Positions 2-60,907 of a DNA stretch of 64,000 nucleotides are shown here, one piece after another. Position numbers and translations under genes: made by a program. How positions within the stretch are numbered: position 1 is the first letter of the stretch; every line of letters begins with the position of its first letter. Source of the stretch: an uncultured Alphaproteobacteria bacterium (GTDB taxonomy: Bacteria > Pseudomonadota > Alphaproteobacteria > Paracaedibacterales > CAITNM01); NCBI GenBank assembly GCA_903893805.1, contig CAITNM010000026.1, positions 69,664-133,663 on the forward strand, given 5' to 3'. The notes under the pieces are model-generated. The model saw only the letters and a list, made by a program, of their open reading frames with translations, did not search any database and was not told where the DNA came from.

Positions 2-409
2 GCTCCTGTGGCTCCTGAAGCTGGATTCTCTGCTTTACTAGCTGGTATGACAAGTTCGTGCCCAATTCAAAGGCATCCTAAAGTGGCTGTTGGTGATGCA
101 GCTTCTCAAGCTTTGATAACATTGGCAGAAGCTACAAGATTCCCTTATGCGATCAATGGTATTAGCTTGACTGGGGACTATGCAACTACGTTTGCTGCAA
201 CCTCTGACATTGTGGATCCGACTGCTGATTCTGCAAGTGCTGGCTTCACAGTTGATGAGCATAGTGTACTTACGATTTTGCATAGTCGTGGTCACACTGA
301 ATTGCCTGCTATTTCGTCTTACCTAGTACCTGGAGGTACTTCTAACATCGTAGTAACAATGGATGCGTCTACGGTTAAGCTTCCAAAACTATCACCTCCA
401 CTAGACTAA
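2..409 (+). CDS. 3' end of a window-truncated ORF; Ala/Thr/Ser-rich putative exported protein, family unclear
   Basis: The frame is open from the window edge to TAA at 407-409; track ORF 8..409 is only the part from the GTG onward. Composition resembles the downstream paralog array. Followed by a CCCCCA/TGGGGG hairpin plus T-run (442-499). Confidence 0.4.
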   Translation, partial: APVAPEAGFSALLAGMTSSCPIQRHPKVAVGDAASQALITLAEATRFPYAINGISLTGDYATTFAATSDIVDPTADSASAGFTVDEHSVLTILHSRGHTELPAISSYLVPGGTSNIVVTMDASTVKLPKLSPPLD

Positions 410-2405: not shown

Positions 2406-3104
2406 ATGAAAACTATTCAAAAAATTACATTAGCTTTGTTGACAATGGTTAGCGTTTCTTCACTTTCAGCTTCTCAGCTTGAAATTGCAAACGCTGGAGC
2501 GGCTACAGTTGATGCAATAATTACTGGTGATGTCAAAAAAACTGGCGCTGGTGCTTTGACAATTTCTGCTGCTATTGCTGGTGACCTTGAAGTTAACGCT
2601 GGTTCAGTGGTTATAGCCGTAAACGCAGTTGCTTCAAGCCTAGATATGACTGGTGGCGACCTATCATGTGGTGCTTTTAACGTGCCAGCTACTTTGATGA
2701 GCTCACCTGCTACTCTAACTTCTACTGCAGCAGGTAACTTAGGAGTGTTAACTGGTACGCAAAAGATGACTTTAGCAGGTGCTTTTGATAGAACATTAGG
2801 CGCGAATGCTTCAGCAACACCAATGGATATTTCTGGTTATGCAGTAATTGGGGCGGCTGGTTCTGTTCTACCAACAGCTGCTACTGCAGTAAAATCTGGT
2901 GGTAAACTAAAATTTGCTGGTGCAGCGCTTAGTTCAATTGCTGGTGCTACAACTGTTGAATCAGGTGGAGAAGTTGAAGTTGCAGCTGCTGTTGATACCG
3001 TTCCATTAATGGTAGATGCATCTGGATCTCTAGCTTTTGCTTATGGTTCTAAGATCACATTAGGAGCTGCCAGTGTATGGTCAATTCCAGTTACTGCAAG
3101 CTAA
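2406..3104 (+). CDS. Exported PATR-like repeat protein, paralog 2 (232 aa)
   Basis: Its first 9 codons are nearly identical to paralog 1 (MKTIQKITL). Cleavage site LSA|SQ. ITGDVKKTGAGALTISAAIAGDLEVNAGSVVI closely matches the PATR consensus. C-terminal motif GSLAFAYGSKITLGAASVW. Confidence 0.8.
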   Translation: MKTIQKITLALLTMVSVSSLSASQLEIANAGAATVDAIITGDVKKTGAGALTISAAIAGDLEVNAGSVVIAVNAVASSLDMTGGDLSCGAFNVPATLMSSPATLTSTAAGNLGVLTGTQKMTLAGAFDRTLGANASATPMDISGYAVIGAAGSVLPTAATAVKSGGKLKFAGAALSSIAGATTVESGGEVEVAAAVDTVPLMVDASGSLAFAYGSKITLGAASVWSIPVTAS

Positions 3105-3461: not shown

Positions 3462-4208
3462 ATGAAAATTATTCAAAAAATACCATTGTGTTTATTCACA
3501 TTGGCAGCAATATTGACTTGGAGCACAGCATCAGCAACGGACTTAGAAATTGACTTTCACGACGGGACGTCAATAGACACAGTTATTACTGGAAAAGTGA
3601 ACTTAGTTGGCTTTGCAGCTTCTGATGAGCTTACCTTGAGCGGTTCCATAACAGACGACGTTAAAATCAGTAGAGGTAACATAAAAACCACCTCTTCAAC
3701 GTCTTTTGGCGCTGACATTATTATGAATGGCGGTAGCCTAGAAACAACAACGGCTATGAGCCTTCCCACACTAGTGATAGATGCAGATAGCACACTTACT
3801 GCCGATGCTGCCGCTACTTTAACTGGCATGGGCGGGGTTAGTAAATTAACTGTTGCTGGTGTTGGGGCAATAACTCCTGATGATTTGAGCGCGGCAACTA
3901 ATGCAGTTGATGTCAGCGGCATTGTACATGTAGGTGCAACTGGTTCTTTGTTGCCTTCAGGTGCAGTGACTGTAAAGAATGCTGGTTTGGTAAAACTTAT
4001 GGGCGTTGTGGCAGACTGTATTCCTGGCGCTATGAAAGTGGAAAGTGGCGGAGCTGTTGAAGTAGATGCGTCACTGGCAGTTCCTGCAGTGGGTGCTGCT
4101 GCTTCTGGTGACCTTTTTGGTACCTTAAGGTTTGACACTGGGTCAAGATTAAAGCTGGGCAATGGTGCAGACTGGGGTCGTGCTGTAACAATTGGTTCAT
4201 ATAGCTAA
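3462..4208 (+). CDS. Exported PATR-like repeat protein, paralog 3 (248 aa)
   Basis: MKIIQKIPL head and ASA|TD cleavage site. Diverged repeat segment ITGKVNLVGFAASDELTLSGSI. C-terminal GTLRFDTGSRLKLGNGADWGRAVTIG is homologous to paralog 1. Confidence 0.75.
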   Translation: MKIIQKIPLCLFTLAAILTWSTASATDLEIDFHDGTSIDTVITGKVNLVGFAASDELTLSGSITDDVKISRGNIKTTSSTSFGADIIMNGGSLETTTAMSLPTLVIDADSTLTADAAATLTGMGGVSKLTVAGVGAITPDDLSAATNAVDVSGIVHVGATGSLLPSGAVTVKNAGLVKLMGVVADCIPGAMKVESGGAVEVDASLAVPAVGAAASGDLFGTLRFDTGSRLKLGNGADWGRAVTIGSYS

Positions 4209-9187: not shown

Positions 9188-9688
9188 CTACTGATCTAAC
9201 TGAAATGAGACAGGAATTTCAAACGATACTTCTTTGCCATTAACATTGAACGTCCACTGCTTCATTGTTTTAAGAAGTTCTTCTTCGAATGGAGCTTTGT
9301 CTCCTTTGATAGTTATTACTTCAATATGCTTAACAGTGCCGGTAGAACTCACTAAAAGCTTCACTGAAAAGCTTCCTTCTTCTCCATTGGCTTTAGCATT
9401 AACAGGATAAGTAGGAGCAGGATTATAAATAACAGACGGCGCAGAAGCAAAATTTTCTGTAGTTACTTGGCTAATAACATGAGCGCTTTTTTTCTGCGCT
9501 CTATTAGCAGAATTTTTTTGAGAAGAAACGTTAACATTTTCACCAATACCTTTAGAGGAAGTTAGTAATCTTACGGAAAAGCTGTGTGATATTTTCTGAT
9601 CTGAGCGCTGCGTATATTGTCCAATAGAAAAAGCAAGCAGACCGTGAATGCAAACTGAACCTATGCACAAGTAACGCATTTTTACCAT
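9188..9688 (-). CDS. TonB-family C-terminal domain protein (energy transducer)
   Basis: N-terminal TM segment. C-terminus PAPTYPVNAKANGEEGSFSVKLLVSSTGTVKHIEV matches the TonB_C fold. The start overlaps or abuts the btuB stop. Confidence 0.7.
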   Translation of the reverse strand: MVKMRYLCIGSVCIHGLLAFSIGQYTQRSDQKISHSFSVRLLTSSKGIGENVNVSSQKNSANRAQKKSAHVISQVTTENFASAPSVIYNPAPTYPVNAKANGEEGSFSVKLLVSSTGTVKHIEVITIKGDKAPFEEELLKTMKQWTFNVNGKEVSFEIPVSFQLDQ

Positions 9689-11493
9689 GTTATGCTTATC
9701 CCCGTGTTAATCTGGAATCCGGGACTCCTGTATCCCGGCGGGCTTTCAATCCTGCGCGCTAAAGCATTTTCAACTGCTACATGCCACGTTGCTTGTTCTT
9801 TAAACTTGTATTGAAAATCACCAAAAAATACAGGGTAGCCACCACGCTTAACCGGTGCATAATTTTCAAAATCAGGCTGAACTTGATGCCCTGTATAACG
9901 CCAACCAACGCTTGTCGTAATGTCTTCTTTTTCATAAAAAATTCTACCATTAGCTGTAACTTTTGGGATATTCATAAGGTTTTTTTTCGGCTTCAAACTA
10001 ACTGATTCAGTATACATACATGATAACTGTGTCCCCCACGGACCAATTTGGTTTTTCCAACCAAGCTCAAAACCCTTTTGGAGAGACTTATTAAGGTTAA
10101 CGTACTTATCGTTTTTGTAATCAATTTGCCGTTTATGTTCAGTTCTAAAAAGAAGAACACTAAATGTACCTGCACTCGTTTTTTGAGCAACGCCTAAATT
10201 GCCACCATAAGCTGTTTCATGTTTCAAACTCTTATTGCCGTACTTTTTATCATTTAACATATATAAATTAGGTAATTGAAATCCTGTACCAATGTGAGCT
10301 GAAAACTCAGTATCAATATGTGTTTTTAACAAACTTGAACTAAATGCATAAACAGGGTTGTAATGATCTGCTTTTTGAACGCGTGCCCAGTTTTTCCACT
10401 TAACCGTATCCTTATCTAAATGAATTCCTTGTGCAAAGGCATATTCTTTATTCTTTGTTTGTTTTGCCCCTGTAAAATCAAGTGTATTGTTATGATATTC
10501 CGCAACGGGTTCAAAAACTACTGAATCGTTTTTTATCTTAATTCCAAATTTTGCCTTACCACTACAACTCCGACCGGTGCCATTACTGCCTATATAAGGA
10601 GAAAAATCTTGAGAAATACCTATAGTACTTAAACCCTTTAAGTAAGGCTGTATACGTTCATCTTTCCCTTCTAAATCAAGCTCATAAATCTGCAGCGTTC
10701 TTTTTGATCTAGAATCATATGGACTTACTCGAGATATATCACTTCCTGTGGAGGCTGATTTAATTAACCCCATTTGCAATGTTGCTTTGACATGATGGCT
10801 ATCAAAACTCAGTCGATTTAAAAAATAACGCTTCTCTGTCTCAGGACTTTTTGCAGTTGGGTATTTAGCTTGGTAACGTTTTGGTATGGAATTATTTCCG
10901 TGAAAGGTGTCACCTTCTATATGTTGCTGCAGAAAAAAACCATCCTGAGATTTTTGACGCCACCATAAATGACCAGATTTAGCACAATTGCCCGCACTTA
11001 ATTTCAAGCCTCCGCTCTGACCATCCGGCATAGAAAATGGAATAACATTAACCACACCACCAATAGCTCCGTTGCCATATTCAGCGCAGTGTATGCCTTT
11101 TACAACTTCAACCTTTCCTGTTGAAAGCGGAATAAGGGCAGCATCTGTTTCTGTTTCACTAATGCTAAGACCTGACCAAAGCATTTTAGTGTATTTTGAA
11201 GTTGACCCTTGAATGCTTATGGTAGTTAGTTGCCCAGGGTTGCCATTTGTTGTGGTTGTGACGCCCGGAATATTTTTTAGTTGTTGCTCTTCAAATCCAG
11301 GAGTTGTTACGCGATTAGTGGCTAACGATTCAATAAATTGCCATGCTGAAGGAGGCAGTTCTTTCTTTGCTTTCACAACAATAGGCTCCAACACCACGGT
11401 TGATGCATGCAATGATGCTACAAAAATAATGCATAAAAATAAGCGCAATGAATTGGCCTCCACAGGTTCGCACAATATAAGCGCGTCACCCAT
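9682..11493 (-). CDS. btuB: TonB-dependent outer-membrane receptor, vitamin B12 transporter BtuB-like
   Basis: TonB box/plug (VVLEPIVVKA...GVTTTTNG...ISIQG), C-terminal ...GISITW, and a cobalamin riboswitch immediately upstream. Confidence 0.85.
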   Translation of the reverse strand: MGDALILCEPVEANSLRLFLCIIFVASLHASTVVLEPIVVKAKKELPPSAWQFIESLATNRVTTPGFEEQQLKNIPGVTTTTNGNPGQLTTISIQGSTSKYTKMLWSGLSISETETDAALIPLSTGKVEVVKGIHCAEYGNGAIGGVVNVIPFSMPDGQSGGLKLSAGNCAKSGHLWWRQKSQDGFFLQQHIEGDTFHGNNSIPKRYQAKYPTAKSPETEKRYFLNRLSFDSHHVKATLQMGLIKSASTGSDISRVSPYDSRSKRTLQIYELDLEGKDERIQPYLKGLSTIGISQDFSPYIGSNGTGRSCSGKAKFGIKIKNDSVVFEPVAEYHNNTLDFTGAKQTKNKEYAFAQGIHLDKDTVKWKNWARVQKADHYNPVYAFSSSLLKTHIDTEFSAHIGTGFQLPNLYMLNDKKYGNKSLKHETAYGGNLGVAQKTSAGTFSVLLFRTEHKRQIDYKNDKYVNLNKSLQKGFELGWKNQIGPWGTQLSCMYTESVSLKPKKNLMNIPKVTANGRIFYEKEDITTSVGWRYTGHQVQPDFENYAPVKRGGYPVFFGDFQYKFKEQATWHVAVENALARRIESPPGYRSPGFQINTGISITW

Positions 11494-11689: not shown

Positions 11690-11718
11690 ATTTTATATAG
11701 AAAAAAAGTGACCGTCAA
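11690..11718 (-). promoter_or_regulatory. Sigma-70-type promoter for the riboswitch-btuB transcript
   Basis: Minus strand TTGACG (11718-11713), 17 nt, then TAAAAT (11695-11690). The -35 box lies inside the preceding terminator hairpin. Confidence 0.6.
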
Positions 11719-11726
11719 ACGATCAC
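11701..11726 (-). terminator. Rho-independent terminator ending the upstream minus-strand unit
   Basis: Minus strand GTGATCG-TTTGA-CGGTCAC followed by TTTTTTT (A-run 11701-11707 on the plus strand). Confidence 0.75.
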
Positions 11727-11752
11727 TTTTGTAATTTTAGAAGTATGAAGTT

Positions 11753-11932
11753 CTATCCTAGTTCAATCATTTTTGCAAAAGAAAGCAGCTCAGCTAAACA
11801 TGTAAAGCCAGATGAATAAGGTCCTTTATTTAATACAACATCATCAGCAATCACACCTAGGTCATTCAGGTAAGAAACCGCTAAAACTAATTGAAGAGTG
11901 ACTGGAAAGAAGTGGCCGCTAGCACGGATCAA
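11753..11932 (-). other. Unlisted 59-codon ORF (TTG start), possibly the frameshifted 3' part of 11919..12422
   Basis: Hand translation gives (L)IRASGHFFPVTLQLVLAVSYLNDLGVIADDVVLNKGPYSSGFTCLAELLSFAKMIELG*. It overlaps the end of the 167-aa ORF by 14 nt in another frame and runs to the terminator. Confidence 0.3.
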
Positions 11933-16523: not shown

Positions 16524-17422
16524 ATGTTTTATTCTTGTTCACTTGTTTTTCTGTGCTTCGATGTGAAGTTCATACCGAAGTTTTTGAACAAGTGCAAAAA
16601 TGGCATAACATCCAGCAGCAACTTGCAATTTTGTATAGTCAGCATGCTCAAATGAATGGTGATAAAGCTCATGATAAGCAAGAATTTTTTAATATACAGC
16701 AGCAATTAGGAGCAATCTATCTTGCTCAAAAACGTTATCAACTAGGTTTTGGGACTGCCTTTCTTCCATCTGAAAAAGCTGTATACAACTATGTCAGAAA
16801 AAAAACATTCCTTGCTTTAAAAACAAAAGAGCTTGTGCCCTTATATAAAAAATATGCACAAGGATATCAAAAAAAATATGCTAGTGGGGAATTTGAGAGA
16901 ATTCAAAAACTTATCAAGCAACTAGAAGCGTTGAATGTATTGCACGGAAAATTATTTGAACAACATAGCCAAGCATATGGAATAAAGCACTGGACATATA
17001 CACCAAAAATTAGTGAAATTTCTTCAATTCATCATTGGGTTAAAAAATTACCAGTAGGCAATGCAAGCAAAAAATTAAGTAACTTATTGAATTGGATAAC
17101 GCCAGTCGCAGGAATTAGAGAATCTTCCTCTAAAACGATATGGACACCTCTTGCTGGAGCTATTGTTCTTTGTCCTGATGCTGGAGTTGTAACGTTAATA
17201 GGTCGTTTAGAAAGAGACATAGTTATTTTTATCAAGCAGCATCATTTTACCTACGCTGTCATAGGACTTAACAAATGCCGAGTGAATGTTGGAGATAAAT
17301 TGAAGCAAGGAGAGCCCTTAGGTTTTTGTGCAGATAAAGATCCAAGATTTGTGGAATTACAACTATGGCGTGACGACATCACCCTGGACCCAGAGCCATA
17401 TCACAAGGTTACACAGTTATGA
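16517..17422 (+). CDS. EnvC-like murein hydrolase activator with a degenerate LytM (M23) domain
   Basis: Coiled-coil N-terminal half. C-terminal M23-like fold (VNVGDKLKQGEPLGF) with RFVELQLW in place of the HxH metal site. Conserved alphaproteobacterial gpmI-envC-ctpA context. Confidence 0.6.
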   Translation: MLNVLFLFTCFSVLRCEVHTEVFEQVQKWHNIQQQLAILYSQHAQMNGDKAHDKQEFFNIQQQLGAIYLAQKRYQLGFGTAFLPSEKAVYNYVRKKTFLALKTKELVPLYKKYAQGYQKKYASGEFERIQKLIKQLEALNVLHGKLFEQHSQAYGIKHWTYTPKISEISSIHHWVKKLPVGNASKKLSNLLNWITPVAGIRESSSKTIWTPLAGAIVLCPDAGVVTLIGRLERDIVIFIKQHHFTYAVIGLNKCRVNVGDKLKQGEPLGFCADKDPRFVELQLWRDDITLDPEPYHKVTQL

Positions 17423-18501
17423 AATTATATATAGTTTTCTTTTTTTTATTGGTTGGTTGTTCAAGCCCCTATCAAGATTTACACGATAGTTTAGATGAAA
17501 CCCTAGAAATTATTGATTCGCTGTACCCAGAAAAACCTTCTCATGAGAAACTCCGTCAGGGAATGTTGCATGGGTTAATTCAAGGGGCAGATGCACACGG
17601 AGCTTACTTGAACGAGACACAAATAAGAGTCTTGAGAGAAACTGTTGATGGCGGAGAATTAAAATTAGGAATGCTTCTAACTAAGCATAAAGAAGGTTTG
17701 CAGGTCAAAAAAGTTTTTGAAAAATCAGCATCACATGCAGCTGGAATTAAAGCAGATGATATTTTAATGGAGTTTGATGGATCACCTTTAAAAGATATTC
17801 AGTTGAATGATTTCCTAAATTTTATAAAAGAAAAAAAAACATACAGCATTACGCTTTTAAGAAACAAGAAAAAACTTACGAAAGAAATTGTTCCGGGCCA
17901 CTTCATAGCGCCAACTGCTGAACTAAAATGGTTTGGTAATGTTGCCTGTTTAAAGTTTGGTTGTGTGAGTAAAGAGGCGGCTGACGAGATACGAGAGTAT
18001 TTACAAATAATAAAATCCAATAAAAAACTATCCGGACTAATTCTTGATTTGCGCGATTGCCCAGGAGGCAGTTTTGAAGCAGGAATAGGTATAGCCAGTC
18101 AATTTTTAGATGGACACGTAGTCGTTGAAATGCAAAAAAAAGATGACTTTTCAAAATTTTGCTCTGCTAGTTTCGATATTTTGAATAAACAACCCATGGT
18201 TGTGCTGCAAAATAAAAACACTTGTTCAGCTGCTGAAATTATTGCGGCAGCACTAAAAGCTCACAAACGTGCAACGCTTATTGGTGAAAACACGGCGGGA
18301 GGAGCTACTGCTAAAGAAGTTGTTCATTTTCCAAACCGTAAGGACGGGTTAATTATTTCAATTGCTTTTTTGAATGATCCTCTTGGAAAAAGGATAGGTC
18401 ATGAAGGAGTAGAGCCTGATATACGTATAGAAGAAATAGTGGCGTCTAAAAACAAAGATTTATACATTGAAAAAGCATTGAGTATTTTGTATTCCAAATA
18501 A
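17419..18501 (+). CDS. S41 family C-terminal processing peptidase (CtpA-like) lipoprotein
   Basis: Lipobox LLVGC; PDZ domain (GLQVKKVFEKSASHAAGIKADDILMEFDG); LILDLRDCPGG; catalytic-Ser motif NTCSAAEIIAAAL. Confidence 0.75.
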   Translation: MKLYIVFFFLLVGCSSPYQDLHDSLDETLEIIDSLYPEKPSHEKLRQGMLHGLIQGADAHGAYLNETQIRVLRETVDGGELKLGMLLTKHKEGLQVKKVFEKSASHAAGIKADDILMEFDGSPLKDIQLNDFLNFIKEKKTYSITLLRNKKKLTKEIVPGHFIAPTAELKWFGNVACLKFGCVSKEAADEIREYLQIIKSNKKLSGLILDLRDCPGGSFEAGIGIASQFLDGHVVVEMQKKDDFSKFCSASFDILNKQPMVVLQNKNTCSAAEIIAAALKAHKRATLIGENTAGGATAKEVVHFPNRKDGLIISIAFLNDPLGKRIGHEGVEPDIRIEEIVASKNKDLYIEKALSILYSK

Positions 18502-18697
18502 ATATTAGTAAAAAATTCAATTGACCTAATGGTATGTATCATTATATTATCAAAATATGCATTATCAAGTGCATATACTCTAACCAATCTAAACATAGGG
18601 AATTCAATTATGAACAACTTCTGGCAATTTTCATGGCGTGACATCGCATTAACAAAATCGAATAAACATTTACGAAAAAGTTTACGAGGAACCTATC

Positions 18698-19729
18698 ATG
18701 AAAAACCGTGTATGCATAAAAGTTAGTATAATCTGTTTAATAAGCGCTATCCCAGCTCATTCTGAGTCTGTTTTAGGTCTAACATCTGACCAAATTCTAA
18801 ACATTCTAAAACCTTTCCAAATTACTCAAGATATCGATAAAAAAAGCTTAAATCAGCTTTCAAGATCTTCTGAACTTCATTTCCTTGACTATAAATCATT
18901 ACAAGAAAAAATTACTAAATTTTTAAGTCTCAAAAAACCACTGAAATTTCTATTGGTGGGCTTTCCTTTTAAATCAGCAAATACAGAAAAAAAGGTATTA
19001 GGCCAAGTGCCTGATATGGCTGAACGACGCAGTCTTGAATACCTATATGGCTGCATCAAGTCACTTAAAGAAGCTTATCCCTATGGGGTTGAACTAGTCA
19101 TTTTTTGTGATGGCATTCCTTTTTGCGAATACCTTGGGATTTCAGCTGAAACTGTAAAGTTATACGAACAAGGGTTGCAAAAGCTTGTGCAAGATATGCC
19201 AGGAATAACGTTGGTAACTTCTGATTCTTTACAAGAACAGTTGGCGCTCTCATCAACTCAGCATATTTGCGATGTGATCGATAAATACGCACCCAGTGAT
19301 GAGGATTTTCACAAGCAGCTTGAAACAGATCCTGCCCTTCAAGATAGTTACAAAACTCTTTTAGGGCGTCTTGAAATTGAATTTGATTCTGTGCAAGGTC
19401 GAGAATTCTTAAAAGCTCATGGTCCTTTGTCAAAGATTACCAAAGCTCTTATGGCACGGGAGATGCGCATGCGTCGTTTCCTTGAAGCACAGTTTGATGC
19501 TGAGAACTTCATTCGCCTAACGGTTCATTATTCCAAGGACTTAGGCAAAAAGTTTGGCATTAAGCTTTCACCCAATTCTTTTGTCACTCCTTACCATGGG
19601 GTGCTGGTGGAAGAGGGGGATGGCAATTGGTTCATTCGTTTCCGAAAAGATATAGATCCTCAAATTTTTGAGGAGGTATCTGAAATGGTGAATGGCCTGC
19701 AATGTCAGTACATGCGCCTCAAAAAATAA
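18698..19729 (+). CDS. PvcA/Dit1-family (isonitrile synthase-like) protein with signal-peptide-like N-terminus, paralog 1
   Basis: FLLVGFPFKSANTEKKVLGQVPDMAERRSLEYL...VELVIFCDG parallels the PvcA segment FVLPAFPAKSPNPQKVLG..PDMGE...ICSDG. SD GAGGA lies 7 nt upstream. N-terminus IICLISAIPAHS|E. Confidence 0.75.
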   Translation: MKNRVCIKVSIICLISAIPAHSESVLGLTSDQILNILKPFQITQDIDKKSLNQLSRSSELHFLDYKSLQEKITKFLSLKKPLKFLLVGFPFKSANTEKKVLGQVPDMAERRSLEYLYGCIKSLKEAYPYGVELVIFCDGIPFCEYLGISAETVKLYEQGLQKLVQDMPGITLVTSDSLQEQLALSSTQHICDVIDKYAPSDEDFHKQLETDPALQDSYKTLLGRLEIEFDSVQGREFLKAHGPLSKITKALMAREMRMRRFLEAQFDAENFIRLTVHYSKDLGKKFGIKLSPNSFVTPYHGVLVEEGDGNWFIRFRKDIDPQIFEEVSEMVNGLQCQYMRLKK

Positions 19730-19870
19730 CCTGACGAAAAGAATTTTTTAACACTGCTCTTGGGTAGTGCGGAGAATCTTTGTCTTTTTAACAATTTTAA
19801 AAAACAGCATTTGACTGTTCAGGGCGGCTATTTGCCTTGTTTTAATCAATTTTTTAAAAGGAGAATTATA

Positions 19871-20939
19871 ATGTCTAAAATATTAACGTTGCTAATTCTG
19901 GTGATTTTGGCAGTTCCTATTATGGGCGCTACTACCACGGTAGAGGAATTAGATGTTCCTGCTATATACAAACGAACTTTACCTAAACTGGAGATTGATG
20001 GGCCTGATCTCCCCCTTGTAAGAGCCAACAATATCGTAGACTATTTACAGCTTTTAGGGGGCGGAGGTCCATTAAATAGCGAGGCCCGTGGTGCTTACAT
20101 AGATTACATACTGGGTAAGCTAAGTGCTGATGAACCCATTCAATTTGTGATTTTAGGGTTCCCGTGTAAATCAACCAATGTGGGGAAAAAGGTTTTAAGT
20201 CAGAGGTTTGATATGGGGGATTACCTTGGGCTTATAAGGCTTGAGCACATAGCAGAACAAATTCAAGAGTTTGTTGGAGTACCTTGTGAAGTCCACATTA
20301 TTAACAAAGAGCCATACATACCTGAAATGTTCGCAGAGATTGAAAGAGAGTTAGACACGAGACTGCTTAATTCTGGTGAATACGAGGTAGCCTTTTTAAG
20401 ATTGCGGGGAACCTGCCCGCATTTGCATTGTGGCGCAGATTTGACCAGAGACTATTTGGCGCAAAAAGCGATGGAAGTTTATCATTCAGAAGCGGCAAAA
20501 GTGCAAATTGTAGCTGCTGCAGAAGGGTCAAAACGGTTTTTTTGCCGACGAAATAGATTACCCCATTGTTAATACTGCGCTAAATGGAAAAGGGATAGTA
20601 AGCAAAGCAGCACTTATGAAAGAACGAAAAAGATTAGGACTGTTAATGTCAGGAGTGTACCAACTAGGGGTAACAGTCTTTAGAGAGGTAGTTAGAGCCC
20701 ATGGATTGTATGGTAGCATGTTACGCCTTTCTGTTCATGGAGACGAAACAAAAGTTGGTATAAATTTTGCTAGTAAGCCTGGTATAGATTGTGTGAGCAC
20801 CTGCGTGCCATGGCACGCGGCTTTGCTATGCGCCAGATCTGGTGATGATGTTTCGTTTGATCTTGTGCATGGTGTTCCAGCAGGAGCCATAGTGACTATG
20901 TCGGTAGCTGGTGTTCCACTACCTTATATTTTGAAATAA
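19871..20939 (+). pseudogene. PvcA/Dit1-family paralog 2, interrupted by a +1 frameshift in a T7 run (track ORFs 19760..20572 and 20616..20939)
   Basis: ATG 19871 has SD AAGGAG. FVILGFPCKSTNVGKKVLSQRFDMGD. Removing one T from 20537-20543 joins ...KRFF to ADEIDYPIVNTALNGKGIVSKAALMKERKRLG... in frame. Confidence 0.7.
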
Positions 20940-20947
20940 TCAACACA

Positions 20948-20973
20948 GGGGAGTGCTAAGCACTCCCCTTTTT
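20948..20973. terminator. Hairpin terminator between the convergent pvcA-like and priA genes
   Basis: GGGGAGTG-CTAAG-CACTCCCC followed by TTTTT. Confidence 0.75.
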
Positions 20974-20992: not shown

Positions 20993-22939
20993 CTAATGAA
21001 ACGCTAAGGGATCAATGTCTACAATTAATCTAATGCTATGAGGTTTGCTGATCTGAGAAAACCAGTGACGAATGAAAGATTGTATAGCAAACCCTTTTGG
21101 GTATTTTAATAAAAACCTCCAACGAAATTGATTTTTTAACCTGGAGAGCGGCGCAGGAACAGGACCCATGATAAAAATATTATCATGCTTGGGAGCAGTA
21201 TGCAGAAGCTTTCTGCAAAAACTCAAAATTTCTGCATTATCACGCCCACTTATTAAGAACGAAGCAAGCCTGCCAAAAGGCGGCATGCCATGCTGTTCAC
21301 GATCTTCTAGTTCAAGTTCAACAAAGCTTTCTTGATCCCAGTTGGCCACAGCTTTAATAACTAAATGATCTGGGTCGTAAGTTTGTAAATAAACAGTTCC
21401 TGGTTTTTGTTCTCGCCCACATCGTCCAGCTACTTGGTGCAACTGTTGATACGTTCGTTCAGCACAACGCAAGTCTGGTCCATTAAGCCCCATATCTGCA
21501 TCAACCACCCCTACTAATGTAATGTTTGGGAAGTGATACCCTTTGCTAAGCATTTGGGTTGCAACAATGATATCAAATTGATTGTTTAAAATTCCATCGA
21601 CCATTTCTTGGGTGCGTTTTGGTGTATTCACCAAATCACTAGTCACACTTAAAATCTTAGCGTCAGGTAATAAGCTTGCTAAATCTTCGCTTAACCGCTC
21701 AACACCAGGACCACAGGGACTTAATGTTGCTTGAGAACAGTTAGGGCAAACTTCTGGAATAGGCTGAGTAAAATCGCAATAATGGCAGTGAAGTCGTGGC
21801 TGATTTTTATGCTGAACCAATGCGACGTCGCAAGCGGCGCAGGTAATTTTAAACCCACAATCACTACAAATTGTTAAAGGAGCGTAACCTCGTCTGTTTA
21901 AAAATAATAAGCTTTGCTCTTGATTGATAATGCGTTTTTGAATCTCTTCGAAAAGAGTAGGGTGTAGCCATTGACTAGGGCGTTGTGATTTTTTGAGGCC
22001 ACGCATGGAAAGAATATTTACCATTGGTAATGAAGCATTTCCAAAACGACTGTTAACTTTTATGTGAGAGTATTTTTTCTGCTTAACATTGAAGATTGTC
22101 TCAAGGCTTGGGGTCGCTGAAACTAACACGGTGTGAATATTTTCTTCTTTTCCACGCAAAATTGCCATGTCGCGTGCATGGTAAATAATAACTTCATCTT
22201 GCTTGTATGATGGATCATGCTCTTCATCAACGACTAATAATCCTAGGTTGCTAAATGGCAATAATAAAGCTGATCTTGCGCCTAGCATAATGCAAGGTGA
22301 GCCTTGATGAACTTGGTGCCAAATAACGTTACGTTGTTTAGGGGTAATTTGTGAATGCCATATTAAAGGCTTTTCCCCAAAGCGTTCTTCGAAGCGTTGA
22401 CGAAACTGTGCCGTTAAAGCTATTTCAGGGAGAAGAATTAGGGTTTGTTTACTCATGTCATATGCTTTTGCACTAGCTTCCAGATAAATTTCGGTCTTTC
22501 CACTTCCGGTTACTCCATCTAGCAAACTAATGTGAAATTCACCAAGTTTATTTACAATTTCATTTTTAGCCGTGCTTTGCTCAGGAGTAAGGTTTGGAGC
22601 CTTAAAATTATATTCAGCTGGTACAATGGCAGGTGAGGTTAGTTCTTTGGGCAGCACATGTTTTATAAGTACACCCAAAGGTGTAAGTGTGTACTCAGCA
22701 AATTTTTTTAAAAAACTGACAAAATGCTCAGGCAATACTAAGGGGTAATAGTTCAATATGTTTTTTAAGCTGTGCTTAAAGTTGGAAGTGCTAGGTTCTA
22801 ATGACCAAATGACCCCAACTGTAACACTATTTTTTAAAGGCACTTCCACGAGTTGTCCTACTAGCGGTGAGACATCAAATGGCCATAAATAGGTAAGTGG
22901 TCTGTCTAATATTGAAGGTACTGCAACTTCTACATTCAT
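20993..22939 (-). CDS. priA: Primosomal protein N' (replication restart helicase)
   Basis: DGVTGSGKTEIY, DEEHD and Cys-rich zinc region CSDCGFKITCAACD...CHYCDF...CPNC. Confidence 0.95.
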   Translation of the reverse strand: MNVEVAVPSILDRPLTYLWPFDVSPLVGQLVEVPLKNSVTVGVIWSLEPSTSNFKHSLKNILNYYPLVLPEHFVSFLKKFAEYTLTPLGVLIKHVLPKELTSPAIVPAEYNFKAPNLTPEQSTAKNEIVNKLGEFHISLLDGVTGSGKTEIYLEASAKAYDMSKQTLILLPEIALTAQFRQRFEERFGEKPLIWHSQITPKQRNVIWHQVHQGSPCIMLGARSALLLPFSNLGLLVVDEEHDPSYKQDEVIIYHARDMAILRGKEENIHTVLVSATPSLETIFNVKQKKYSHIKVNSRFGNASLPMVNILSMRGLKKSQRPSQWLHPTLFEEIQKRIINQEQSLLFLNRRGYAPLTICSDCGFKITCAACDVALVQHKNQPRLHCHYCDFTQPIPEVCPNCSQATLSPCGPGVERLSEDLASLLPDAKILSVTSDLVNTPKRTQEMVDGILNNQFDIIVATQMLSKGYHFPNITLVGVVDADMGLNGPDLRCAERTYQQLHQVAGRCGREQKPGTVYLQTYDPDHLVIKAVANWDQESFVELELEDREQHGMPPFGRLASFLISGRDNAEILSFCRKLLHTAPKHDNIFIMGPVPAPLSRLKNQFRWRFLLKYPKGFAIQSFIRHWFSQISKPHSIRLIVDIDPLAFH

Positions 22940-31532: not shown

Positions 31533-33083
31533 ATGATTAGCCCAAATCTTAAATTAATTTTTATCTGCACGCTGTTAGCATCATCAAGAGTTATTTCAAT
31601 GGATAGTGGTATAATGCCACCAGATGACTCATCTACTGCAGTACCAAGAAATGGCAGCATTGCATCAGCAACAGATGACCCTTTTGGAAAATTAATGAGA
31701 ACGTTAAATTTTTTGAGCGTGTCCAAGGGAAAGATTGAGCCATGGAAAAATGCTATTTCTGCATATCAGCAATCATTATCTGATAATGCAGAAATATCAA
31801 CATTAGCAAGCATAAGAGAAAGAATTCTAGGAGAACCTTTAGCAAAGCGTAAAATGGCGATGGTTAACAGAGCGTTCAGTAGTTTGACAAATGACTCTAC
31901 TGCTCCGGTGGCTTTTACTCCCAAGCCTTGTGCTCCTATGCAAATTATTGTATTTCAAACTCCCGCAACGAGAGAAAGACCTGCACTCAGTAGTGAAACA
32001 CGAAAACGTGTTACAGCAAAACCTCCTATACTTTCAAGTGTAATGGAGGGAAGAGATTCCCTTGTTGGTAAAGAAGCTATTCCTGCACAGGCCATTAAGG
32101 CGCATATGATGAATTTTATTGCTGGGCAAGATACTGCTCTTGAAGCGCTTAGCTTTTTAGCACATCGCTTTTTGTGTAATAAATTATTGCTTGATAGGGA
32201 CGGTATGCCTGCTAGTAAACCATCACACTGCATATTAACGGGTCCAACAGGATGTGGAAAAAGTGAGAGTCTTAAGCAATTGGGGCTATTTTTAGGTGTG
32301 CCTATCCTGAATATTAATGCACGAAGCCTAACTGATGAAGGATTTAAAGGGCAAAATTTCAGCGAATGTGTTTCTAGTTTTTGTGAAGAAAACGGAAATC
32401 CAAAATCGGCCATTATTGCAATCGATGAAATTGATAAGCTTGCAGCACGAGGAGATGATGAAGCACGAAATTTTGGTAGAGCAGTTCAACGTGTTCTGTT
32501 ATCGCCTTTAGACGGTAATTCTATTTCATTAAAAAGAAAACGATTTGATCTTACAAATTGGTGGTTTATTGGAACGGGTGCTTTTTCTGATTTGAAAGGT
32601 CGACATGACGTAGAAGGGGAGCGCACATCAACGGCTAGAACTCAACAAGATATTATTAGTGCTGGTTTTGAACCTGAATTCGTTGGTCGTTTTCCTTCAG
32701 TTATTGCCTTCAAAGGTCACACAATTGCGACAATGATGGACGTCATTGAGCGTGATGGATCTCCCTTAAGGAAAATACAAAATGAATTTAAGCGTTTTTA
32801 TGGGGTAAATCTTACTGTTGAAGCGGCAGCCTTACGACGTCTAGCGTCCACAAGCATCGAAATAAATCTTGGAGTAAGAAGCTTAGACACAATTCTAAAC
32901 ATGGCATTGCAACCTTTTTATGGACAAGCAATGGAGCTAATAGCAGTAGAGGGCGAGACATCATTAGTTGCAACTTTAAAGGATATTATGCCTGCTATTG
33001 AGCAATTTAAGAAAGATAATAAAGAAGCTCCTAAAGATCGTTTTGCAGGAATGTCAGAAGAGGTAAGAAGAATGTGGATCTAG
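31533..33083 (+). CDS. Orphan ClpX-like AAA+ ATPase with a novel ~210-aa N-terminal region; no zinc-binding domain, no IGF loop
   Basis: SD GAGGAGG. GPTGCGKS, pore-loop position EGFKGQN (ClpX has AGYVGED), IIAIDEIDKL, FIGTGAF and PEFVGRFP. Hydrophobic N-terminus LKLIFICTLLASS. Confidence 0.75.
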   Translation: MISPNLKLIFICTLLASSRVISMDSGIMPPDDSSTAVPRNGSIASATDDPFGKLMRTLNFLSVSKGKIEPWKNAISAYQQSLSDNAEISTLASIRERILGEPLAKRKMAMVNRAFSSLTNDSTAPVAFTPKPCAPMQIIVFQTPATRERPALSSETRKRVTAKPPILSSVMEGRDSLVGKEAIPAQAIKAHMMNFIAGQDTALEALSFLAHRFLCNKLLLDRDGMPASKPSHCILTGPTGCGKSESLKQLGLFLGVPILNINARSLTDEGFKGQNFSECVSSFCEENGNPKSAIIAIDEIDKLAARGDDEARNFGRAVQRVLLSPLDGNSISLKRKRFDLTNWWFIGTGAFSDLKGRHDVEGERTSTARTQQDIISAGFEPEFVGRFPSVIAFKGHTIATMMDVIERDGSPLRKIQNEFKRFYGVNLTVEAAALRRLASTSIEINLGVRSLDTILNMALQPFYGQAMELIAVEGETSLVATLKDIMPAIEQFKKDNKEAPKDRFAGMSEEVRRMWI

Positions 33084-35643: not shown

Positions 35644-36579
35644 CTAACTATGTCGGTTGGTTGTTATTGAGTGATTGAAAGAAAGGCTTTTATACTCTTT
35701 GGACAGAAAACCGCGTTGCCATTCAATTCCAGAAATTCGGTCTGCAGGCATCTGTGAGTTTTTACCATGCACAATAGTTGCTTCGTTAGGAAAAAATGTT
35801 AATACAAAGTTCGCATACATTTCATATTCTGAAAAGACCTGACTAGAAATTTCAGGGGTATTTAAAACATCCTGCCATGGTTTGTCATGCAATTTTTCTA
35901 GCCTATTTTTCATGGCTTTGAGCTTTGATTTGTCAAAAAACATATGCTGACTATTGAAATCAAGATTGTAATATTTTTCAAGTTTTAATACTGATTCGAC
36001 CATAAGCTTGCAGTCTAACACATACTTATTACAGACATTGAAAACAGCTTTATCTTCCCGAAGAAATATTTGAGTTTGCAACAAAACTGTATCGGCATCA
36101 ATCACTAGGTAATAATCTGAGGTAATGACGGTATCTGCGTTCAGCTTAATGAGCTGTTGTTTTAAATATCCTGACAAATCGTTGCTTCGAGCAAGTTGGG
36201 GAATAACTTTTGTTTCTTCCACAAACTCGCAGCCTTTTTCTAAGGCTACATTCCTTAACTTTTCAGACTCTGGGCAAATTAAATAAATTTTATTGATAGG
36301 GTGCATTATCAACCCTTTCGCAGCATCAATTGCATGACGAATTGTTGGTAAATCTTTTTCAATGCACAAAAAAACAACGTCAATTTTAGTCTGACATAAC
36401 GGAACATGGTTGTTAGAATAGCGGTCTCTTTTAAAAGACAAAAGCTTCATGAAAAGCTTTCTTTTGTAAATATGCCACTTTGTATCTTCAATCGGTAACT
36501 CTTCAGGTGTTGTTATAAGCCAAACACTTAAAATTGTTATGGAAATCAGCAGTGATAGTAAAGCCAAAAAGCGCTTCAT
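35644..36579 (-). CDS. Membrane-anchored GT-A-like putative glycosyltransferase (DUF6492-like), paralog B
   Basis: N-terminal TM segment; [11 protein letters not shown]...; [14 protein letters not shown]...[10 protein letters not shown] (DxD). Full-length paralog of 36583..37524. Confidence 0.5.
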
Positions 36580-36582
36580 ATA

Positions 36583-37524
36583 TTATTGCCCTGTCATGCC
36601 TTCAATTGTTAAAAAGCTATGCATCGTCATGCTTTTGTATTTGCAGCTTAAATATTCTCGTGCATAACTAATGCTGGAAAGTCCATTGCGTGGAAAAAGC
36701 ACGTTACTTCCTAAAACAAGCTCAATTTCATTTTCAAAGCATTGCGCCACAAAGTTGCCATACAGTTCATATTCGGAAAAGCCACCCTCAGGAATGTTCA
36801 AGGTATCAAGTGCATCTTGCCATGGAAGTCCATGCAGATTTTGCAAATGTTGTTTTAAAGCTTTTAATTTTGTTTTGCAAATCAGCATATGGTGGCTAGT
36901 GAAATCAACATTATGAAATTTATCAAACCCCAAGGCAATTTTCACCATTTGTTTTCGATCAAGCCAATAATCATGCAAAATATTCAGAACTTCTTTATTT
37001 TCTGTTACAAAAATCTGAGGGCGAATCAAAATTGTGTCTGCGTCAATAATAAGGAAATGTTCGCATGTCCCAACTTTATCAGCATTAAGCTTTAAATATT
37101 GCTGTTTAATCCATCCCTTTCGATTGGTATTATTCGAAAATGTAGGCAGTACCGTATCTTCTAAAACAAATACACAATTCTTTTCTTGAGCAATTTTGCG
37201 CAATATTATAGATTCTGGTGCGATCAGATAAATATTGGAAATAGGCTGCAAAATATTGCCACGCACCGAATCAATAGTTAGTACTAAAGTTTCAGCATCT
37301 TTTTCAATAACAGGAATGACCACGTCAATTGGCATCTTGCTTAAGGGGACATGCAAGTTACAAAAAGGGTCACGTTTTATTTTTAAATATGCGTAATGAA
37401 TGTAGCGTAAAAATTGTTGATATTTTGAGTCTTGTTTAGGTAAATAAGTAGGATGACACGCGTAATACACAAAGCACATTGCGCAAATTAGGATTGCAAA
37501 AGCACATTGAGTAATTCTTTTCAT
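36583..37524 (-). CDS. Membrane-anchored GT-A-like putative glycosyltransferase (DUF6492-like), paralog A
   Basis: N-terminal TM segment; IDVVIPVIEKD...; KGWIKQQYLKLNAD...HFLIIDADTI (DxD). Confidence 0.5.
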   Translation of the reverse strand: MKRITQCAFAILICAMCFVYYACHPTYLPKQDSKYQQFLRYIHYAYLKIKRDPFCNLHVPLSKMPIDVVIPVIEKDAETLVLTIDSVRGNILQPISNIYLIAPESIILRKIAQEKNCVFVLEDTVLPTFSNNTNRKGWIKQQYLKLNADKVGTCEHFLIIDADTILIRPQIFVTENKEVLNILHDYWLDRKQMVKIALGFDKFHNVDFTSHHMLICKTKLKALKQHLQNLHGLPWQDALDTLNIPEGGFSEYELYGNFVAQCFENEIELVLGSNVLFPRNGLSSISYAREYLSCKYKSMTMHSFLTIEGMTGQ

Positions 37525-59374: not shown

Positions 59375-60907
59375 ATGAGTAAGACAGACAATTCAACGCC
59401 AGAGTTTACGGGCTTACGTGCTCGACTTTGGCCAATTCACGCACATGAGCTAAAAAAGTTTATCCCTCTAGGCATTATTATGTTTTGCCTATTGTTTAAC
59501 TACACTATTCTTCGTGATACGAAGGATTCTTTAGTAGTTAACTCAGCGGGCGCGGGAGCCATTACGTTTTTGAAGCTATACTGCGTTACACCGGCAGCGA
59601 TATTATTCGTTGTTTTGTACGCAAAGCTGACAAACGCTATGTCACGTGAAAATGTATTCTACGCTGTAGTTGCGCCATTCATAATATTTTTTGGTATTTT
59701 TGGATTCGTAATTTACCCAAATCTTCACATGCTTCATCCTTCAGTTGAATCAATTCAAGCGCTACATGCTGCTTATCCTAATTTAAGTGGATTCATTGAT
59801 TTGTACGCATACTGGGCATTTTCTTTGTTCTATGTTCTTTCTGAAATTTGGGGAAGTGCAATGATTGCGTTAATGTTCTGGCAATTTGCTAACCATGTTG
59901 TGCGCTTGCGTGAATCAAAGCGTTTCTACGGGTTATTTGCTGTTATTGGAAATGCAGCGTTAGTAGTTTCTGGACCTACAGTTATGTACTGTTCTGAGCA
60001 TATTAAGCACATGGTCCCAGAAGGCGTGGATCCTTGGCAAATAACATTATACCTTCTTATGTCTGCAGTTGTAGTCATGGGCTTGGTTGCTATGTATACA
60101 TACCGTTGGATGCACAAAGAAGTGTTAACTAACAAGTTGTATTTCAACCCAGAAGAAGAAGGCGCGCCAAAGAAGAAGAAAAAAGAAAAGCCAGGTCTTA
60201 TGGAGAGCTTTAAAATTATTGTTCAGTCACCTGAGCTTGGTTTGATTGCCCTTTTGATTATGGCTTACGGCGTAACTATTAACTTGGTTGAAGTTCAATG
60301 GAAAAACCAATTAGGTTTATTTTGTTCTGGAAATAAAGGACTTTTCAACTATTACATGGGCATTTTGTCTACTGCTACTGGTATTTTCACAATTCTATTT
60401 GGACTCTTTGTTGGCTCAAATATTTTGAGAAAAGTAAGCTGGGCAAAAGCTGCGATGATTACTCCTTTGGTAATTTTGGTTGGCGGCGGAGCATTCTTCT
60501 GCTTCATCCTAGCTGAAGGTATGATGGAACCATTTTTGCAGTTCTTTAATACTCATGCGATTGCTGCTGCAATGTTTATTGGTTTAGGTATCGTTGTTGT
60601 GTCAAAGGCTATTAAATACATTTTGTTCGATCCCACAAAGGAAATGGCTTACATTCCATTGGATGATGAGCTAAAGACAAAAGGTAAGGCTGCTGTTGAC
60701 GTTATTGGTGGTCGTGCTGGTAAAGCCGGCGGTGCTTTTGTGCAAAACATGTTATTAATTGCTTTTGCAACTAAAGACGTTGTTTCAATTGCACCAATTG
60801 CATTTGCAGTGTTTGCTGTAGTTGCAGTGGCTTGGTTATATGCTGTTAAAGCACTTTCAGTGAAAGTGACCGCGGCAACTGCCAAGAAAAAACTAGAACA
60901 AGCATAA
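59375..60907 (+). CDS. tlc: ATP/ADP translocase (Tlc/Npt family nucleotide transporter)
   Basis: LWPIHAHELKKFIPLGIIMFCLLFNYTILRDTKDSLVV is the hallmark N-terminus. About 12 TM segments, 510 aa, SD AAGAGGA. Confidence 0.95.
   Translation: MSKTDNSTPEFTGLRARLWPIHAHELKKFIPLGIIMFCLLFNYTILRDTKDSLVVNSAGAGAITFLKLYCVTPAAILFVVLYAKLTNAMSRENVFYAVVAPFIIFFGIFGFVIYPNLHMLHPSVESIQALHAAYPNLSGFIDLYAYWAFSLFYVLSEIWGSAMIALMFWQFANHVVRLRESKRFYGLFAVIGNAALVVSGPTVMYCSEHIKHMVPEGVDPWQITLYLLMSAVVVMGLVAMYTYRWMHKEVLTNKLYFNPEEEGAPKKKKKEKPGLMESFKIIVQSPELGLIALLIMAYGVTINLVEVQWKNQLGLFCSGNKGLFNYYMGILSTATGIFTILFGLFVGSNILRKVSWAKAAMITPLVILVGGGAFFCFILAEGMMEPFLQFFNTHAIAAAMFIGLGIVVVSKAIKYILFDPTKEMAYIPLDDELKTKGKAAVDVIGGRAGKAGGAFVQNMLLIAFATKDVVSIAPIAFAVFAVVAVAWLYAVKALSVKVTAATAKKKLEQA

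Follow-up and report, generated by a model that had tools for sequence, protein, structure and literature searches.

A divergent pair of PvcA/IsnA-family genes with export-type leaders in Finniella-related and other intracellular bacteria

Enzymes of the PvcA/IsnA/Dit1 family join ribulose-5-phosphate, through its C2 carbonyl, to an amino group (in the classical cases that of L-Tyr or L-Trp), and the product is an α-isocyano acid. To our knowledge, every member characterised so far acts in the cytoplasm, together with a dioxygenase, a cytochrome P450 or a module of the non-ribosomal peptide synthetase (NRPS) type. Two tandem genes of this family, gene 1 and gene 2, lie at positions 18698-20939 of a 64,000-nucleotide stretch of DNA from an uncultured alphaproteobacterium (contig CAITNM010000026.1; the whole stretch is referred to here as the window). 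Both genes begin with a hydrophobic, signal-peptide-like leader, and no gene for a dioxygenase or a P450 was found in the window. This locus raises the question of what such a pair might make, and on which side of the inner membrane. We put the probability at roughly 0.5 that the locus is a two-gene operon for an exported, probably two-subunit, isonitrile- or N-formyl-forming branch of the PvcA/IsnA/Dit1 enzymes that would act on host-derived substrates. Homologs of gene 1 are termed A and those of gene 2 are termed B. The features of the locus are:

18521-18548, + strand: promoter-like site, TTGACC-16 nt-TATATT, a consensus match at 10 of 12 positions, within the 196-nt gap after ctpA
18686-18690, + strand: Shine-Dalgarno-like GAGGA, 7 nt 5' of the gene 1 ATG
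18698-19729, + strand: gene 1, A-type PvcA/IsnA-family protein of 343 amino acids (aa), with a PF05141 match
18698-18763, + strand: putative gene 1 leader, MKNRVCIKVSIICLISAIPAHS / ES, with an n-region of charge +3, a core of 10-14 residues, and A-H-S followed by an acidic mature end
19820-19839, + strand: weak hairpin with 8 pairs (4 G-C) and a T-run after it, in the spacer of 141 nt between A and B
19859-19863, + strand: Shine-Dalgarno-like AGGAG, 7 nt 5' of the gene 2 ATG
19871-20572, + strand: gene 2, 5' part, B-type PF05141 paralog with a PF05141 match, cut short to 233 aa by the frameshift
19871-19927, + strand: putative gene 2 leader, MSKILTLLILVILAVPIMG / ATTTVEE, from a sequence heuristic
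20535-20543, + strand: frameshift site, GG followed by T7, with one extra base relative to the orthologous loci L001 and L002; the frame moves by +1
20544-20939, + strand: gene 2, 3' part, in the +1 frame (called as an open reading frame at 20616-20939, 107 aa); carries RLSVH...K.G...PWH
20947-20969, both strands: strong bidirectional intrinsic terminator hairpin between gene 2 and priA (10 pairs, 7 of them G-C), with the T-run on the + strand

Gene 1 matches the Pfam family PF05141 (DIT1_PvcA) with an E value of 2.9e-39 and 135.6 bits (cut-off 26.4), over positions 1-267 of the 273 in the profile. Its AlphaFold2 model has a predicted local distance difference test (pLDDT) score of 89.8, and the top Foldseek matches of the model in the Protein Data Bank (PDB) are PIsnA (9DHM and 9DH4) and PvcA (3E59), with E values of about 1e-18 (2.3e-18 for a match with TM 0.73/0.80) and template modelling (TM) scores of 0.72-0.83. 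The two PIsnA structures are complexes with L-Tyr or its isonitrile product. Gene 1 has also lost none of the residues that A-type and canonical proteins share without exception, namely those of FPxKSxN, PDMAER, DG, R, RLxxH, KxG and TPxHG. The ratio of non-synonymous to synonymous substitution rates (dN/dS) is 0.09-0.25, indicating purifying selection, and between strains gene 1 is more conserved than its flanks (dS 0.05-0.09 versus 0.16-0.75). With the conserved residue set and the isonitrile-synthase fold both kept, gene 1 is most likely the catalyst of the pair. An antisense open reading frame of 111 aa (19098-19433, - strand) lies inside gene 1 and is open in L001 and L002 as well; it is most likely a by-product of the very low divergence of gene 1, and not a gene.

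Gene 2 is a different kind of protein. The 5' reading frame matches PF05141 with E=1.6e-12 and 47.9 bits (cut-off 26.4) over profile positions 5-64, and the 3' frame matches positions 211-256 with E=0.004; an intact ortholog scores 63.7 bits. The AlphaFold2 model of an intact B ortholog (pLDDT 83.7) matches the PIsnA/PvcA fold less closely than that of gene 1, with an E value of 7.5e-11 and TM scores of 0.5-0.65 (0.57/0.65 for the match with that E value). FPxKSxN, RLSVH, KxG and PWH are kept, but positions that are invariant elsewhere are changed: DG is replaced by IINKEPY, HG by HA, and PDMAER by FDMGDY. Across B proteins, residues of the NK/EP type stand in place of DG, and the positions that are lost vary between B lineages. 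Fifteen of the 16 B proteins carry a hallmark, Y-x3-[LI]-P-x-[LI], just after the leader (YKRTLPKL in gene 2). Gene 2 is an ancient divergent paralog, and not a recent duplicate. The loss of invariant positions is more in keeping with a partner that is non-catalytic or re-purposed than with a second synthase of equal function; hence gene 2, judged from its modelled fold and residues, most likely encodes a non-catalytic or modified partner subunit.

In the window, gene 2 is also broken. It starts at the ATG at 19871 and would be expected to end at 20939, but the 5' reading frame stops at 20572 and the remainder is in the +1 frame; where L001 and L002 have CG followed by T7, the window has CGG followed by T7. 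Removing one base in silico yields a 355-aa protein that is collinear with the L001 and L002 orthologs, and the gene is intact in L001, L002 and L004. The 3' part has no leader, and no Shine-Dalgarno sequence precedes its internal ATG. We considered a sequencing or assembly error and ruled it out: the window matches an independent metagenome contig (L035) at 100% identity across 5013 bp, and the exact 233-aa truncated product (P0078) is indexed in 67 blocks of a public collection, so the frameshift is real. The dN/dS of gene 2 is 0.21-0.34, again indicating purifying selection, and that of the part beyond the frameshift is 0.16 against L001. No long period of decay is visible in this value, and the break is thus either recent or partly bypassed. 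Gene 2 of locus L003 has an independent frameshift at another site (approximately 11700-11760, near CPHLxCGADL), and the sole copy in Holospora curviuscula (L022, 9890-10752), of the A type, is split into fragments. The initial annotation of this DNA had described two equivalent synthases, the second as one intact reading frame; neither part of that description holds, given the break at 20535-20543 and the ancient, divergent character of gene 2, which lacks family-invariant residues.

The divergence of the region is a mosaic. Relative to L002, identity is 95-97% in the flanks and 97-99% in gene 1 but only 75-87% in gene 2 (dS 0.53 versus 0.16-0.28 for the flanks). Relative to L001, the flanks are approximately 80-88% identical and gene 1 is 94-99% identical (dS 0.09 versus 0.43-0.75 for the flanks). 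The pattern across 18598-20939 suggests recombination that homogenised gene 1 and swapped or diversified gene 2.

The hydrophobic N-termini are a property of the whole group. All A and B proteins that we examined open with a positively charged n-region, after which comes a hydrophobic core of 7-24 residues; canonical proteins have neither. A family search across 1.84 billion representative sequences yielded 1778 members, of which approximately 48 form the A clade. When a simple leader heuristic was applied to full-length representatives at 50% identity, 36 of 44 from the A clade passed, as opposed to 12 of 93 other members; ten of these 12 are B-type or A-like, leaving approximately two of 83 canonical proteins. 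The gene 1 leader is conserved among orthologs, with no alternative start downstream of it and ahead of the catalytic core. In the AlphaFold2 model of gene 1, residues 1-22 have pLDDT below 50 and the folded domain begins at about residue 25; pLDDT is likewise below 50 for residues 3-24 in the model of the intact gene 2 ortholog, whose fold begins directly after the leader. The N-terminus of gene 1 scores among those of envelope proteins of the same genome (CtpA, LptA, a TonB-dependent receptor and a DUF4139 protein whose own leader ends ...SGHS/EE) and above those of its cytoplasmic enzymes. We searched gene 1 for a lipobox or a twin-arginine motif, and found neither. B leaders have short cores, small-x-small sites and acidic mature ends (for example ...FTWA/MEHVP, ...IFA/MEHVP and ...LNHA/SESP), and both these and the leaders of Holosporales A proteins resemble cleaved Sec signal peptides. 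That the leaders are an artefact of extending reading frames upstream was rejected: they are conserved, begin with Met and basic residues, and are present in independent gene calls. In seven of the 16 B proteins (L005, L006, L007, L008, L014, L017 and L029) a Met directly follows the predicted leader, as in ...A/MEHVP, and could serve to start a second, leaderless, cytoplasmic isoform. From these features we infer Sec-type export of both A and B.

A hidden Markov model (HMM) built from gene 1 homologs gives two neighbouring matches in nearly all of the symbiont loci, one strong, taken as A, and one weak, taken as B. A and B are adjacent in the window and in L001-L010, L013, L014, L016, L017, L029 and L036, always on one strand, in either order, and with a gap of -4 to 143 nt; the relatives L011, L012 and L015 have A without B. 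Carriers of the pair are Holosporales (Finniella-like), Dependentiae/Babeliales, and other alphaproteobacterial or unclassified metagenome-assembled genomes (MAGs), and their neighbourhoods hold eukaryote-like domains (SET, MYND, F-box, LRR and WD40). Neighbour-joining separates A, B and canonical proteins, each as a bipartition recovered in 100 of 100 bootstraps. A groups with the canonical enzymes, B is separate and long-branched, and the A and B subtrees are roughly congruent. Finniella sequences sit among Dependentiae-type sequences in both subtrees, which suggests, as far as a simple distance tree can, that the pair has moved as a unit between symbiont groups. The closest loci to that of the window come from MAGs labelled Candidatus Finniella inopinata and Candidatus Odyssella sp., in which the gene 1 protein is 97% identical and the gene order is shared. 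Members of the Paracaedibacteraceae (Holosporales) are cytoplasmic endosymbionts of protists (2025 Holosporales review). The window itself encodes a TLC-family ATP/ADP translocase (59375-60907, + strand; PF03219, E=4.5e-173). Such translocases mark energy parasitism among obligate intracellular bacteria, and its presence here is in keeping with that way of life; as the initial annotation held, the organism is an endosymbiont, a Finniella-like member of the Holosporales. The G+C content of the window is approximately 38.5%, as compared with 44% listed for the published Candidatus Finniella inopinata genome; the 'Finniella inopinata' label of L002 may therefore be loose, and Finniella-related Paracaedibacteraceae lineage is the better name.

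If the proteins form isonitriles, which enzyme works alongside them? We compared the locus with canonical loci from Actinobacteria, Pseudomonas and Bacteriovoracaceae. In all those that extend past the synthase gene (L018, L020, L021 and L023-L028), a single PF05141 gene is directly followed by a gene for a TauD-family dioxygenase. An HMM built from these TauD (PF02668) genes had no match in the 64-kb window or within 10 kb in the symbiont loci; the P450 haem-loop motif FxxGxRxCxG is absent from every open reading frame of the window and loci; and Pfam scans of the window's main open reading frames, a subset of the total, revealed neither TauD nor P450. The locus thus has neither the adjacent iron/2-oxoglutarate dioxygenase of PvcA/PvcB and IsnA/IsnB nor the adjacent P450 of Dit1/Dit2. 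All-versus-all clustering of open reading frames within 6 kb of the pair in 31 loci uncovered no third conserved gene: only the paralog recurs. An ABC ATPase considered as a third partner occurs in four loci only, at varying distances, and we judged it coincidental. Since the A+B pair is conserved across phyla, the 'missing partner' may be the B paralog itself.

A further indication of location comes from a gene fusion. In locus L008 (3291-5411; protein P0087) and in P0088, an A domain is joined in frame to the C-terminus of the branched-chain amino-acid transporter BrnQ (PF05525), which takes the place of the leader. The two proteins come from two organisms and are 75% identical, and a leader-bearing B gene lies approximately 560 nt downstream. 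Stand-alone BrnQ proteins of these lineages are approximately 390 aa long, equal in length to the fused part; we had considered that the fused BrnQ stops short of helix 12, but dropped this because the stand-alone proteins are equally short. Hydropathy averaged over the BrnQ family, and loops that are by turns rich and poor in K/R, agree with 11 helices, the N-terminus lying inside and the C-terminus outside, a topology that would place the A domain in the periplasm. We sought a solved BrnQ structure in a copy of the PDB, and there was none.

These observations suggest the following scheme. The operon would run from the promoter-like site through gene 1 and gene 2 to the terminator, and A and B would cross the inner membrane by means of their Sec-type leaders. 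B would be cleaved and released into the periplasm, and A either cleaved or left tethered to the membrane. A would then perform chemistry of the isonitrile-synthase type outside the cytoplasm, with B as its partner. The product, with no dioxygenase to act on it, would be an α-isocyano acid or, by hydration, an N-formyl amino acid, as for Dit1. More speculatively, host small molecules might reach the periplasm through outer-membrane porins, the bacterium being free in the host cytoplasm. By likeness to isonitriles elsewhere, the product might bind metal or inhibit host enzymes. In the lineage of the window, A might act alone, as presumably in L011, L012 and L015, or slippage on the T7 run might restore some full-length B. 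The association of A with B, the substrates, the product and the use of host metabolites are all points that we infer.

Several observations weigh against an extracytoplasmic enzyme pair of this kind. Gene 1 scores 85 bits against the NCBIfam PvcA equivalog model (NF045653), far below its cut-off of 600 (the gene 2 ortholog scores 22 bits, and a Pseudomonas control, L026, scores 406 bits); for this reason its substrate and product are not transferable by homology. Ribulose-5-phosphate is cytoplasmic, so a reaction outside the cytoplasm would depend on a hypothetical external supply. The recurrent breaks in the window, L003 and H. curviuscula imply that the system is dispensable in some lineages. 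The other points concern topology, and they feed an alternative in which the leaders are anchors (N-out, C-in) that hold an isonitrile or N-formyl synthase on the cytoplasmic face of the membrane, near amino-acid importers and with access to the cell's own ribulose-5-phosphate. The substrates of PvcA and IsnA are themselves cytoplasmic. A proteins of Dependentiae have long, anchor-like cores of 15-19 residues followed by basic clusters (K/H/K/K), which a cytoplasm-facing anchor would also fit. In a Dependentiae-like MAG (L033, 5873-8166), zwf and gnd lie divergently beside a B-A pair, with a transketolase gene nearby; the glucose-6-phosphate and 6-phosphogluconate dehydrogenases make cytoplasmic ribulose-5-phosphate, the co-substrate of the family. 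The count of 11 BrnQ helices comes from hydropathy and might be off by one, since the parity would be reversed if residues 267-300 held a second helix; with 12 helices, the fusion would suit coupling to uptake. Nevertheless, we regard such anchoring as unlikely. The n-regions are all positive, and the residues after the core are acidic or neutral in Holosporales A proteins and in all B proteins, the opposite of what an N-out orientation needs. Moreover, B leaders combine short cores with AXA-like sites, as signal peptides that are cleaved typically do, and the distribution of K and R over the BrnQ loops agrees with 11 helices and not with 12.

Two other explanations accept less, or ask for more, than an exported envelope enzyme. 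The locus might simply be decaying in this lineage, gene 2 being a plain pseudogene and gene 1 persisting alone or going next. The frameshift is fixed and widely sampled, the 3' fragment has neither a leader nor a Shine-Dalgarno sequence, L003 has an independent frameshift and H. curviuscula a fragmented copy, and A occurs without B in three relatives. We nonetheless think this improbable, because gene 1 is under purifying selection and is conserved beyond its flanks, because the low dN/dS of gene 2 extends past the break, and because the T7 run adjoins that break, such that dropping a single U from the mRNA, or a +1 slip of the ribosome, would bring the frame back. At the other extreme, the proteins might be secreted into the host as effectors, there converting host tyrosine or another amine, with host ribulose-5-phosphate, to an isonitrile or N-formyl compound. 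Sec leaders on both proteins, the restriction of the clade to intracellular symbionts with neighbourhoods rich in eukaryote-like domains, and the divergence of gene 2 beyond that of its flanks, as is frequent in host-facing proteins, are all consistent with this idea, and both substrates are abundant in the host cytosol. However, neither the window nor the surroundings of the pair contain secretion-system genes, and the A proteins of Dependentiae and the BrnQ fusions, being membrane-tethered, would be unable to leave the cell, such that only cleaved forms could do so. We consider delivery into the host very unlikely; action on host or envelope tyrosine, which the initial annotation raised, is speculative.

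Going beyond the exported enzyme pair that we favour, we tentatively picture A and B as an envelope isonitrile or N-formyl amino-acid synthase that has been exchanged among protist symbionts (Holosporales, Dependentiae and others), in some cases fused to an amino-acid transporter, and that is fed with ribulose-5-phosphate and amino acids by the host, its metal-binding or enzyme-inhibiting product protecting the bacterium or manipulating the host. This fuller picture is doubtful as it stands; if true, isonitrile chemistry would for the first time be placed beyond the cytoplasm, and the factors of symbiont-host interaction would gain a new class.

The pair is preceded by a ctpA-like gene for an S41/PDZ protease (17419-18501), and the convergent priA gene (20993-22939) lies beyond it. 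An Rfam scan of the locus gave no match. The weak hairpin in the spacer is a possible attenuator, of uncertain significance. Most of what the initial annotation had read from the sequence is borne out here: both genes have PF05141 matches and the family core motifs that it quoted, both begin with the hydrophobic, Sec-like stretches described, now seen to be a trait of the clade that canonical members lack, the Shine-Dalgarno sequences are well placed, the flanks are ctpA and priA, and the absence of a nearby PvcB or P450 extends to the whole window and to the homologous symbiont loci. Elsewhere in the window, a cobalamin riboswitch (RF00174; 11528-11695, - strand; 100.6 bits) immediately precedes the gene for a TonB-dependent receptor (9682-11493, - strand), which is followed downstream by a gene for a protein with a TonB C-terminal domain (9188-9688); together, these probably form a B12 uptake unit. 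Three Ala/Gly/Thr-rich paralogs (660-1478, 2406-3104 and 3462-4208, + strand) share almost the same signal peptide (MKTIQKITL...), match nothing in Pfam at E<=1e-5, and may be a family of variable surface proteins. A small GIY-YIG gene (1706-2011) is interspersed among them, with a similar fragment at the start of the window (8-409). Two adjacent DUF6492 paralogs with N-terminal hydrophobic segments (35644-36579 and 36583-37524, - strand) lie just downstream of mraY. A 516-aa AAA_2 ATPase of the Clp/Hsp100 type (31533-33083, + strand) has a signal-peptide-like N-terminus, MISPNLKLIFICTLLASSRVIS, an unusual combination.

How does the pair compare with known systems? Gene 1 has its Pfam family and fold in common with PvcA of Pseudomonas aeruginosa (3E59) and IsnA/PIsnA (9DH4 and 9DHM), the L-Tyr and L-Trp isonitrile synthases. 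PvcA and IsnA have no leader and are followed by the TauD-type PvcB or IsnB, whereas the proteins described here carry a Sec-type leader, lack a dioxygenase, and have as constant neighbour a divergent paralog. The cyanobacterial hapalindole-type AmbI1/AmbI2 and WelI1/WelI2 are alike in that two PF05141 paralogs stand together; they are encoded in large natural-product clusters with an IsnB-type dioxygenase (I3), and we know of no report of leaders on these proteins. In the pair described here, by contrast, one paralog is strongly degenerate at invariant positions. Yeast Dit1 resembles gene 1 as a single-domain PF05141 enzyme that has no TauD dioxygenase; it is located in the spore cytosol, pairs with the P450 Dit2, and makes N-formyl tyrosine for an extracellular layer of the spore wall through the N,N'-bisformyl dityrosine pathway (PMC7345447; PMC5974471). 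The difference is that the window has no P450 motif and that the proteins carry export signals.

AmbI1/AmbI2 and WelI1/WelI2 are listed among the bacterial isonitrile synthases (PMC5974471). The isocyanide synthase (ICS) domain also occurs fused to a dioxygenase (ICS-DOX) or to an NRPS (ICS-NRPS), as in IsnAB of Vibrio, XanB and CrmA, and fungal isocyanides are copper-responsive (PMC5974471). Surveys of the family cover single-domain architectures, fusions to a dioxygenase or an NRPS, and paired genes of the AmbI1/I2 type, and leave signal peptides unmentioned; the fusion partner in the A clade is an amino-acid transporter, BrnQ, outside the three architectures catalogued in PMC5974471. As a candidate for effector chemistry, the 2025 Holosporales review offers a type VI system and nothing else, and the PF05141 family goes unmentioned there. 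Our literature search yielded no paper tying this family to Holosporales or Dependentiae and none on an exported member, in line with the initial annotation, which had held that an exported pair in an endosymbiont is not a described system. The pair is a concrete candidate for host-interaction chemistry in Holosporales and Dependentiae, groups in which effector chemistry is almost unknown. An exported branch, paired with a degenerate paralog and found only in obligate intracellular bacteria of protists, would, if true, revise both the site and the substrates of the chemistry. Neither the family nor its fold is new. The new features are the localisation signals, the conserved pairing of A with B, the fusion to a transporter, the lack of a tailoring enzyme and the confinement to symbionts.

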